Source of the DNA: a virus
Lineage: Duplodnaviria; Heunggongvirae; Uroviricota; Caudoviricetes
DNA: 28,152 nt
IMG/VR virus record: IMGVR_UViG_638341086_000001
Coordinates: 1 to 28,152 of that record
Reading direction: 5' to 3' (one strand)
Part shown: in pieces, positions 8,409-9,092 of the stretch
Position numbering within the stretch: position 1 is the stretch's first letter
Layout: each line of letters opens with the position of its first letter
Program-made: the position numbers and the translations under genes
Notes under the pieces: generated by a model
Told to the model about the DNA's origin: nothing
The model's input: only the letters and a program-made list of their open reading frames with translations
The model's database searches: none

Positions 8409-8679
8409 GTACTGCCAGGCAGACGAAGAGTGGATTCAGCAGCAGTTACAGGGGCTGCCTCCGTCACTGAGACGGAAGGTTGCCCTGAAATATGCGGAGG
8501 TATACGAAATCACTTTTGACGCTGAGCCTGTTTCATTCCGCAAGGAGAACAGAGCAAGGCACGAAGCAAACACAAGGCTCCGCCTGTTTGTAAGAAATCA
8601 GGGCAGAGCTTTACAGGGGTATACAGCCGAACCTCCCCTGGCTGGATCGCAATCGCGCTCCTCATTGTTTCGGGTTTAA
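8371..8679 (+). CDS. Hypothetical protein in the cII-equivalent position
   Basis: Overlaps the cro-like 3' end; alternative ATG at 8398; ...EEWIQQQLQGLPPSLRRKVALKYAEVYEITFDAEPVSFRKENRARHEANTRLRLF...; no family recognised. Confidence 0.4.
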   Translation: MSQNYVQTEMPSRYCQADEEWIQQQLQGLPPSLRRKVALKYAEVYEITFDAEPVSFRKENRARHEANTRLRLFVRNQGRALQGYTAEPPLAGSQSRSSLFRV

Positions 8680-8830
8680 AGGTACCCGAACAGAAGCAGG
8701 CTTAAAGGTGCCTGTTCAGGTTGGCAACCAACTGACCCAACTCCTCATGTGTACTAGGGAAGTAGTACGTTTTTATGGGGAAGAGGGTAAGGGGGGTAAG
8801 GGGGGATTGGGTGTTGGGGCAGGAATAGGG
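8676..8830. repeat. Direct repeats TTAAAGGT(A/G)CC and clustered G-tracts in the cro-distal intergenic region
   Basis: TTAAAGGTACCCGAACAG (8676-8693) and TTAAAGGTGCCTGTTCAGG (8702-8720); G-tract cluster GGGGAAGAGGGTAAGGGGGGTAAGGGGGGATTGGGTGTTGGGG (8777-8819). Confidence 0.4.
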
Positions 8831-9092
8831 TCTTTTCCAACAGGAGAGATCCATTGGTTAAGTAGATCACTGTCTTAAGGGCGCAATTTAAAAAAACGCC
8901 CGTATCAGCAAGGTAGTACAAAGCGCTCAGGCGCTGAGAAACGAAAAGGGTTCTTCCTGGAAGAGTGATTTTTCAGAGGAGCTGAATCAGAAGGGAGGCT
9001 GGCAGCCTTTGGGGAGGCCACCAGCCATGTGAGGGGGAATCCATGAAAACCACATCACAAAATTATTATCTCATCAGCACGGGAGCTGCACA

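Follow-up and report, generated by a model that had tools for sequence, protein, structure and literature searches.

What does the 410-bp non-coding gap in front of the helicase and primase genes of a lambdoid prophage do? The question arises in IMG/VR record IMGVR_UViG_638341086_000001, a 28,152-nucleotide (nt) stretch of Escherichia coli prophage DNA (hereafter, the window), where the gap separates a gene whose product belongs to protein family PHROG 852 from the helicase gene. An earlier inspection of the letters (the sequence-only reading) had taken this region for a replication origin and/or a structured regulatory element. Our analysis suggests that positions 8640-9102 of the window represent one instance of a cis-acting element that is widespread as part of the "Eru1-like" replication module in temperate phages of Enterobacterales. 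The element is most likely a replication start site or an early-transcription control site, and the reading that we rank first, tentatively and as a best guess, is a transcription-driven origin of the R-loop type resembling the second conserved sequence block (CSB II) of mitochondria. The element is apparently undescribed: our literature searches found no description of it, and the two papers that define the Eru1 unit mention neither an origin nor this non-coding region (PMC8044961, PMC8951638).

To gauge constraint, we aligned the window with the phages Fostie (E. coli), YP3 (Yersinia) and ENT39118 (Cronobacter). Between 8770 and 9043, 89% of the alignment columns are invariant; in the helicase gene of the same four phages the corresponding values are 89% at the first codon position, 91% at the second and 38% at the third. 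Because its invariance matches that of codon positions 1 and 2 and not that of position 3, the non-coding element is constrained as strongly as the positions that determine amino acids, and is under strong purifying selection. The proposal that the region is non-coding, functional and tied to the helicase-primase module is thus upheld, both by this selection, which is like that at non-synonymous sites, and by the region's constant position in the module. The gap is not a gene, since 1-nt insertions and deletions in homopolymer runs distinguish relatives across it and the open frame over the G-tract shifts between subfamilies, being closed in the subfamily Eru1b; these observations rule out a 56-codon GTG open reading frame (ORF) at 8708-8878 and the minus-strand ORFs as protein-coding. 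We note that the Fostie annotation places two minus-strand hypothetical genes, CDS0037 and CDS0038, on the element (record L002, 3131-3253 and 3303-3419), and that the annotation of Klebsiella phage ST11-OXA48phi15.1 runs a minus-strand hypothetical gene across the PHROG 852 gene and the G-tract (L208, 1980-2366); these annotated genes are probably spurious. A search of window positions 8000-9300 against Rfam 15 found no family at gathering score and, at E up to 10, returned two chance-level hits of 12-14 bits. A consensus scan detected no promoter within the element, and the candidates read by eye were weak and not conserved.

The element belongs to a large family. A search with a core pattern recovered it from at least 120 viral contigs, and a search with a second pattern from 22 Enterobacterales species representatives, including Yersinia, Serratia, Xenorhabdus, Citrobacter, Enterobacter and Atlantibacter. 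The helicase-primase pair of the window is the same gene pair as the published Eru1 replication unit (PMC8044961). A divergent Eru1 version of the element occurs in 98 phage records, mostly of phages converting their hosts to Shiga toxin (Stx) type 2a, one of these records being from an O103:H25 outbreak strain. Every subfamily with enough flanking sequence has the same fixed order, namely PHROG 852 gene, element, an optional inserted ORF, helicase and primase, and the partnership between element and helicase/primase holds across helicase identities from 100% down to 66%. All family-like genome matches that reach far enough downstream carry the helicase; one Xenorhabdus record, L257, ended short of it. 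The element is single-copy in the window and in the complete Fostie genome, and a search of plasmid records for a mini-replicon or satellite carrying it gave only whole phage genomes or prophages. The Enterobacter asburiae "plasmid" p16773_5 (NZ_CP083847.1, L243) is a 42.9-kb circle resembling a complete phage genome, with head, tail, lysis and integrase genes and an element match of 92% identity that is adjoined by PHROG 852-like and YdaS-like genes. A match in a Planctomycetaceae record (L253) looks like chance.

The repeats, G-tracts and palindromes that had drawn the sequence-only reading to this region are real, yet alone they are only mildly unusual, and their significance comes from conservation. 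The direct repeats TTAAAGGT do lie at 8676-8683 and 8702-8709, within a 21-nt direct repeat spaced 26 nt, and the octamer occurs three times in 28 kb against an expected 0.6. What had been described as their partially inverted flanks are really the stems of two hairpins in which the repeats form the loops, and a role as iteron-like repeats is not supported. Five G-tracts had been counted at 8777-8819, a stretch that is 65% G and 0% C; the location was correct, and the count has to be raised to six runs of at least three Gs. Quadruplex prediction, a check that had been proposed for this tract, identified there the sole canonical quadruplex motif of the window and its top G4Hunter score (2.4), but 11 of 300 shuffles of the window reached that score as well, making the tract only mildly improbable by composition. 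Palindromes are present as claimed, with AGCGCTCAGGCGCTGAG at 8922-8938 and GGCTGGCAGCC at 8997-9007. As for extent, the element begins some 35 nt before the stated start, within the 3'-terminal part of the upstream ORF. The statement that the gap holds no convincing ORF stands insofar as no long conserved ORF is present, but a conserved leader ORF of 19 codons at its 3' end had been overlooked. The parts of the element are:

8644-8661, + strand: hairpin P0, GGAUCGC / GCGCUCC, inside the 3' end of the upstream ORF; read from the sequences
8669-8690, + strand: hairpin P1a, with the loop UUAAAGGU at 8676-8683; from a covariation test
8696-8715, + strand: hairpin P1b, with the loop UUAAAGGU at 8702-8709; from the same covariation tests
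8749-8774 as listed, + strand: left framing hairpin L, GUACUAG...UAGUAC, at 8751-8768 and extendable to 8749-8770
8777-8831, + strand: G-rich tract, whose universal core is the G6 doublet at 8791-8796 and 8800-8805 (GGGGGGTAAGGGGGG)
8777-80, 8785-87, 8791-96, 8800-05, 8809-11 and 8816-19, + strand: runs of at least three Gs
8822-8840, + strand: GGAA...CUUUUCCAA block, a possible short hairpin GGAA/UUCC
8853-8874, + strand: segment III, ATTGGTTAAGTAGATCACTGTC, the second universal block, with an invariant GATC inside
8879-8901, + strand: hairpin P4, GGGCG / CGCCC with an A-rich loop; read from the sequences
8902-8919, + strand: right-hand framing unit R, GTATCAGCAAGGTAGTAC, which directly repeats hairpin L
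8920-8990, + strand: variable zone, with the palindrome at 8922-8938, the motif GGGTTCTTCCTGGAAGAGTGA at 8948-8968 and a hairpin UCAG-AGGAG-CUGA at 8973-8985
8997-9026, + strand: hairpin GGCUGG...CCAGCC, just 5' of the ribosome-binding site of the leader ORF
9031-9038, + strand: strong Shine-Dalgarno sequence GAGGGGGA
9043-9102, + strand: 19-codon leader ORF, translated MKTTSQNYYLISTGAAQWS*, whose TGA (9100-9102) overlaps the helicase start (ATG, 9093-9095)

Which strand folds is indicated by the 5' hairpins. In 39 distinct versions of P1, pairing reaches 91% of the cells (shuffles, 72.5%; slid controls, 31-49%), with compensatory changes at six of the seven stem pairs; the sequences used in our covariation tests are mutually related, so that shuffle controls overstate the significance. 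The stem, of 5-8 base pairs (bp), covaries freely around an invariant 8-nt loop UUAAAGGU. Because G·U pairs outnumber A·C mismatches in these stems (24 vs 6), the strand that folds is the + strand, which has the same sense as the early rightward transcript. The idea of a structured element is borne out by such + strand hairpins backed by compensatory changes. Types B and C and more distant variants have a single P1 hairpin, and P1 is missing from the Eru1 and Xenorhabdus versions though the core is retained. The stems at the position of P0, one of several helices (P4 is another) identified by eye from the sequences, differ among relatives: CAGGAACG/CGUUCCUG, GGAUC-CG/CG-AUCC or GGUCA/UGACC. 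In most relatives the PHROG 852 ORF ends at a TGA within CTCCTGATTG; the window has TCA in its place, which extends its ORF by five codons up to a TAA in the P1a loop.

A strict 8-nt loop on a freely covarying stem is the mark of an RNA hairpin recognised by a protein or another RNA, and it argues for a reading nearly as likely as the R-loop origin, namely that the element would serve the early rightward operon as a regulatory leader RNA, in which the hairpins P0, P1, L, P4 and R would set the amount of transcription or translation arriving at the genes for helicase, primase and the antiterminator Q. In one version, a Rho-dependent terminator zone would be combined with antitermination as at lambda nutR-tR1, the arginine-rich PHROG 852 protein would bind the UUAAAGGU hairpins, and the G-rich, Shine-Dalgarno-like tract would block Rho or load ribosomes. 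The wobble bias favours the + strand, the element stands at the nutR-tR1 position after a cro-like gene, and a C-rich, G-poor stretch (8725-8747) lies just 5' of the G-tract. The G doublet also resembles a very strong Shine-Dalgarno sequence as read from the letters (UAAGGGGGG vs UAAGGAGGU). The PHROG 852 protein is small and poorly ordered with an invariant basic helix, and the Fostie annotation contains no N-like gene. Weighing on the other side, P1 is absent from Eru1 and Xenorhabdus despite their retained core, and no terminator is conserved: a scan found no intrinsic terminator on the + strand of the element, and hairpin L with the UUUUU directly after it is AU-rich and has that U-run in type A only.

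The resemblance to lambda nutR-tR1 thus lies in the early rightward position between cro-like and replication genes, a hairpin with conserved loop and variable stem, a nearby C-rich stretch and a nearby gene for a small, basic, poorly ordered protein; it differs in that the PHROG 852 gene is upstream in the same operon and that its product has no detectable similarity to N (hhalign of the family against a lambda N sequence entered by hand gave a probability of 0.2%). P1, with its 8-nt loop, is not a boxB with a GNRA-like pentaloop on a 5-bp stem. The string resembling a boxA (CGCUCUUUA-like), CGCUCCUSA, is confined to types A and B, where it is the 3' arm of the covarying P0. The leftward operon lacks a second copy: the window has no minus-strand TTAAAGGT, and the other copies of this octamer in Fostie lie only inside tail genes on the opposite strand. 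HK022 put is a cis-acting structured RNA downstream of an early promoter in a phage without N (PMC9378689), and HK022 belongs to the Hendrixvirinae, the subfamily of the relative ENT39118. Unlike the single-copy element, put is about 70 nt long, has two stems and stands behind both early promoters; identity with put was rejected when blastn-short against the whole HK022 genome gave only chance matches of 10-15 nt. A single global RNA fold was likewise rejected, RNAalifold on 30 diverse cores yielding only -4.4 kcal/mol and hardly any shared Watson-Crick structure in the two blocks that are conserved best, in a MAFFT alignment that may misplace stems; this value also counts against a leader RNA, as does the lack of any Rfam family match.

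The G doublet and segment III are framed by L and R. In 48 distinct versions of hairpin L, pairs 3-9 are largely retained, with U·G, C-G and U-A replacing one another, one version is a full compensatory variant (GUACCAG/CUGGUAC), and G·U again exceeds A·C (about 44 to 9). Unit R is 72% identical to L and lies 151 nt from it; it was rejected as a genuine hairpin because of its weakness, 46 of 56 versions carrying a C·A mismatch. Among 110 distinct relatives, 108 have an L-R spacing of 147-158 nt, and Eru1 has a different hairpin pair, again alike to each other (UAGUU type, against the GUAC type elsewhere), at a spacing of 153 nt. P4 has equivalents in Fels-1 (GGGCA/UGCCC) and in Eru1 (GAUAGUU/AACUAUC or GAUGGUU/AACCAUU). 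Only two blocks are conserved as sequence over all subfamilies, the G doublet and, about 50-60 nt downstream, CATAGGTTAGGTAGATCACTGTA (CATAGGTTAGGTAGATC). The doublet (runs of 4-8 Gs, 1-3 nt apart) is present in every subfamily examined, namely types A, B and C and those of Klebsiella, Yersinia, Serratia, Xenorhabdus, Eru1a and Eru1b. Its form is GGGGGGTAAGGGGGG in the window and GGGGAGGGGG in type B; Eru1 has GGGGGTAAGGGGG or GGGGGCAAGGGGG, and a single relative has G6AG8. The remaining G runs are not kept. Segment III is retained as CATAGGTTAGGTAGATCACTGTA even in the Stx phages with Eru1, whose helicase is only 66% identical, and both it and the doublet occur once per phage genome in Fostie. 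Eru1 has other hairpins in place of the GGAA...CUUUUCCAA block; in alignment A2 CTTTTCCAA does not vary, though that alignment was selected using this very pattern. In type B and in one Yersinia type a stem clearly connects the end of the doublet with the 5' side of segment III (p about 0.01 each); as a universal outer stem it was rejected, being absent in some subfamilies and equalled by 9 of 200 shuffle sets.

The same tract carries the suggestion that the functional unit is an intramolecular G-quadruplex formed at 8777-8819 by the DNA or the RNA. Its four-run motif at 8777-8805 (runs of at least three Gs, loops of 1-7 nt) is the only canonical one in 28 kb, and ViennaRNA prefers the quadruplex for the isolated tract (-18.2 vs -6.7 kcal/mol). 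The minimum-free-energy fold of the full element, however, uses none, and shuffles equal the G4Hunter score. Because the motif is not conserved, with only the two long runs surviving in type B (GGGGAGGGGGAGGAG) and in Eru1 (GGGGGTAAGGGGG, GGGGGCAAGGGGG), a canonical four-run quadruplex is unlikely as the functional unit, and we give very little credence to this part of the sequence-only reading. Draft assemblies do break at the G-tract, which would favour a quadruplex: at least eight independent IMG/VR draft contigs begin or end raggedly inside the doublet, at the equivalent of window 8794-8804 (L015, L040, L049, L051, L055, L067, L071, L079 and L086), and in L051 26 nt of unrelated sequence are joined at the break point. 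The pattern looks as if sequencing or assembly had failed at the G-tract, not as if the contigs had been trimmed at gene boundaries; it would fit a structure that stops polymerases in vitro, other causes being possible.

The twin framing units invite a further interpretation, that of a duplex DNA origin at which L, R, the ARGTAGWWC words and segment III would bind a phage initiator, either the PHROG 852 protein or the C-terminal domain of the helicase, which would wrap or loop about 150 bp and melt the DNA without transcription. L and R are alike within a phage and different between subfamilies while the spacing of 147-158 bp is kept; ARGTAGWWC, a 9-nt pattern chosen post hoc, has three copies in 28 kb, all of them in the element and on the same strand; and the most conserved blocks are kept as sequence and not as base pairs. 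The invariant GATC of segment III is joined in most subfamilies by a second GATC nearby, and segment III is tandemly duplicated in Xenorhabdus, in the prophages L247 (~1180-1245) and L257 (GAGTACATAGGTTARGTAG...GTAGATCT), where the L-R spacing is 174-176 nt. Yet both the extreme asymmetry of G and C between the strands and the G·U bias speak for a single-stranded + strand and not for duplex recognition, the stems covary freely, as would not be expected of duplex half-sites bound by protein, no AT-rich unwinding region is found, and the PHROG 852 protein has no recognisable DNA-binding domain. We therefore regard a duplex origin as improbable.

In the R-loop reading, replication of the module would start at the element through transcription and not through iterons. 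A consensus scan predicts a PR-like rightward early promoter on the + strand at 8070-8098 (TTGAAT, a 17-nt spacer and TATTAT with TG), from which cro and the PHROG 852 gene would be transcribed together with the element and the helicase. A scan for terminator-like sites on the + strand between this promoter and 9213 found none, and on these two grounds the gap is probably transcribed rightwards along with its flanking genes. Transcription from the promoter would cross the G5-7 doublet with the G runs on the non-template strand, and the G-rich RNA would remain on the C-rich template as an R-loop, which an RNA:DNA hybrid quadruplex might lock in the manner of CSB II. Folding of the displaced + strand would give the framing hairpins about 150 nt apart, and the opened region would be the loading place of the phage helicase and primase, with segment III as the probable recognition site and perhaps some aid from the PHROG 852 protein in loading.

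Several observations lead us to rank this R-loop origin first. The two traits looked for in such an origin are found, in that the element lies downstream of a predicted promoter with its G runs on the non-template strand and the doublet of long G runs is conserved among relatives. Strong conservation, the lack of coding and the fixed partnership with helicase and primase count in its favour. The ranking rests on the strand asymmetry, with a GC skew of +0.70 over the G-rich region and the G·U excess in P1 and hairpin L; on the two-run doublet, the format of CSB II, being the only feature of the tract common to all subfamilies; and on compact operons such as that of Fostie, which consists of the PHROG 852 gene, the element, helicase, primase and Q only and has no recognisable initiator or iteron array. 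It rests further on framing hairpins that differ by subfamily yet keep their spacing of 147-158 nt, and on the ORFs tolerated between the core and the helicase, which argue against a device acting directly on the helicase ribosome-binding site (they are also compatible with a processive, transcription-level mechanism and so with a leader RNA). Finally, the distant relative Pseudoalteromonas phage HS5 has an iteron origin at the equivalent place.

At CSB II (G5AG7), transcription makes an R-loop that is stabilised by an RNA:DNA hybrid quadruplex and whose RNA primes replication, and two G-tracts are enough for such hybrid quadruplexes (PMC4176368, PMC3488243). The element shares with it a doublet of long G runs on the non-template strand (G6-TAA-G6 here and G6AG8 in one relative, against G5AG7), a location downstream of a promoter and beside replication machinery, and the lack of iterons. 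It differs in the polymerases and kingdom concerned and in adding framing hairpins, segment III and a gene for a partner protein. The resemblance is one of format, not ancestry. A stricter proposal, that the element is the phage counterpart of CSB II, at which a helicase-primase replicon without initiator would start from an R-loop or hybrid quadruplex nucleated by the G doublet, with the twin hairpins about 150 nt apart framing the start structure, seems to us possible but rather unlikely. In ColE1, through RNA II, and at T4 oriF and oriG, replication is founded by a structured transcript that forms a persistent hybrid with its template, in a transcription-dependent manner and without an initiator protein; the ColE1 hybrid joins a G-rich segment of the RNA to a C-rich part of the template. 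Those systems use host DNA polymerase I, RNase H and PriA, or T4 gp59 and gp41. In contrast to ColE1, no RNA I-like antisense regulator is seen at the element; there is no sequence similarity, and the element's dependence on transcription is something we infer.

The R-loop reading also has to contend with several unfavourable points, some of which touch any origin. The suggestion of an origin or regulatory element holds for its structured and functional part, but the classical hallmarks of an origin are absent. The element has two-copy repeats only, and we found no array of three or more repeats of 17-22 bp; the AT content between 8600 and 9100 reaches at most 70% over 40 nt, in the leader ORF, which gives no AT-rich unwinding element, the core having a GC content of about 50%; and there is no DnaA-box cluster, only loose matches outside the core. 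Every supporting observation, including the wobble bias, the fixed position and the tolerance of ORFs, fits a purely RNA-level regulator equally well. The GC-skew minimum of Fostie lies about 700 bp away, and it is uninformative because it coincides with divergent promoters and is thus confounded with the switch in the direction of transcription. To our knowledge, R-loop-primed origins have not been described in lambdoid phages, and literature searches for them found nothing. The HS5 analogy is positional only. Iteron origins, such as lambda ori and the RepL-type origin of HS5, share with the element their location relative to a homologous helicase-primase pair; they differ from it in their iteron arrays, AT-rich unwinding element and recognisable initiator. 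In HS5 (L210, 1380-1500) the array consists of ATACTCTATAGCGGT four to five times, one copy inverted, and downstream of it lie genes for RepL, for a GIY-YIG nuclease and for a helicase 56% identical to that of the window.

Between the core and the helicase lies a variable slot, of which the window has the ORF-less allele. In Fels-1 and phi467 the slot holds a 369-nt ORF of PHROG 1347 (122 amino acids; L005, 3106-3474, and L006, 2634-3002), with a nuclease-like motif recognised by eye only. The slot ORF of L023 (about 1909-2500) and L036 reads by eye as an HNH-type endonuclease, and the slot gene of HS5 (L210, 1981-2451) is annotated GIY-YIG. The motif TTCCTGGAAGAG is common to the start of the PHROG 1347 ORF and to ORF-less distant relatives. 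Because three kinds of ORF occupy the slot in relatives, the conserved core need not abut the helicase start.

The last ~110 nt (8997-9102) are a unit separate from the core, present in types A and B and missing from several other subfamilies. The hairpin at 8997-9026 is nearly invariant wherever this 3' unit occurs and is too uniform for covariation. The leader frame has 18-19 codons in almost all of 57 distinct variants, all versions of 18 or 19 codons have a stop that overlaps the helicase start, and its variation is spread over the codon positions as 6:6:7. Since frame and overlap are kept while variation is even over codon positions, the act of translation, and not the peptide, seems to be the selected feature, and the leader ORF probably delivers ribosomes to the helicase start by translational coupling.

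The window's element sits in an early region of lambdoid layout. Over the query, the prophage is 100% identical to several complete E. coli chromosomes, and the window's type was present in 82 of 5,426 complete genomes. The neighbouring genes are:

7309-8001, minus strand: LexA/CI-type repressor gene
8157-8408: YdaS/Cro-like gene
8371-8679, + strand: PHROG 852 gene, encoding a 102-amino-acid protein (PHROG 852 at E=4e-41)
8680-9092: non-coding gap between the PHROG 852 gene and the helicase
9093-10751, + strand: superfamily 2 DEAD/DEAH helicase gene (Pfam ResIII and Helicase_C), forming with the primase the pair PHROG 16 and PHROG 510
10753-11721, + strand: Zn-ribbon/Toprim primase gene (Pfam Toprim_3 and Zn_Ribbon_Prim)

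Past the primase come an unclassified gene and then an annotated antitermination protein gene that is Q-like in related phages. About 1 kb past the start of this Q-like gene, Rfam matches identify the small RNA STnc100 (13721-13911, + strand, 145 bits) and, adjoining it, the anti-GcvB small RNA AgvB (13912-13973, minus strand, 96 bits). A third match, the ALIL pseudoknot at 1456-1572 of the window (119 bits), is presumably a frameshift signal of the IS3 family, which would put an insertion sequence in the left part of the window. That the prophage has STnc100 and AgvB could be taken to favour one more idea, in which the early transcript releases the element as a free-standing small RNA or as a sponge (of CsrA or 30S subunits, for instance); several GGA motifs, some in predicted loops (CAGGAAU, CAGGAGA, UCAG-AGGAG-CUGA), would agree with this. 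We think it highly improbable, given that the scans point to no promoter of its own and no conserved terminator, that the GGA motifs are not conserved across subfamilies and that the strict linkage to helicase and primase would be left unexplained.

The PHROG 852 protein figures in both leading readings, as a possible loading aid at an R-loop origin or as the RNA-binding partner of a leader RNA. Its family comprises 467 homologues, all unnamed, and its gene is upstream of the element in every subfamily examined. Two motifs are invariant, a basic helix ENRARHEANxRLR and a tail QGYTxxPPLAG, and the structural model has three helices (predicted local distance difference score, pLDDT, 60). Searches found no Pfam domain, no sequence match in the Protein Data Bank (PDB) and no fold match at E <=0.001, and there was no similarity to RepL or to lambda CII, whose sequence was entered by hand. 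One phage record labels a homologue "CII", and the ArgO145 record leaves it unannotated.

The Eru1 helicase-primase unit has been linked to highly virulent Shiga-toxin E. coli and to unstable lysogeny, and was reported in the Stx2a-converting phages of the O104:H4 and O103:H25 outbreak strains (PMC8044961). The origin and control of this unit were previously undescribed, and an element of about 300 nt, conserved as tightly as coding sequence, is now delimited within it. The element fits neither iteron origins nor nut sites, put RNA, intrinsic terminators or any Rfam family, and it appears to carry both sequence-level traits of an R-loop origin. The analysis yields a part-by-part map, hundreds of natural variants and two sharply different mechanisms. 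A leader RNA, if that reading is true, would be a new device for control of an early operon and would come with a new candidate family of RNA-binding proteins, PHROG 852. An R-loop origin, if true, would be the first transcription-primed origin with a G doublet known to us in a temperate phage, which would be notable, and would offer a target for blocking the replication of Stx phages; should its mechanism be CSB II-like, the same device would be at work in the Eru1 unit of the Stx2a-converting phages.

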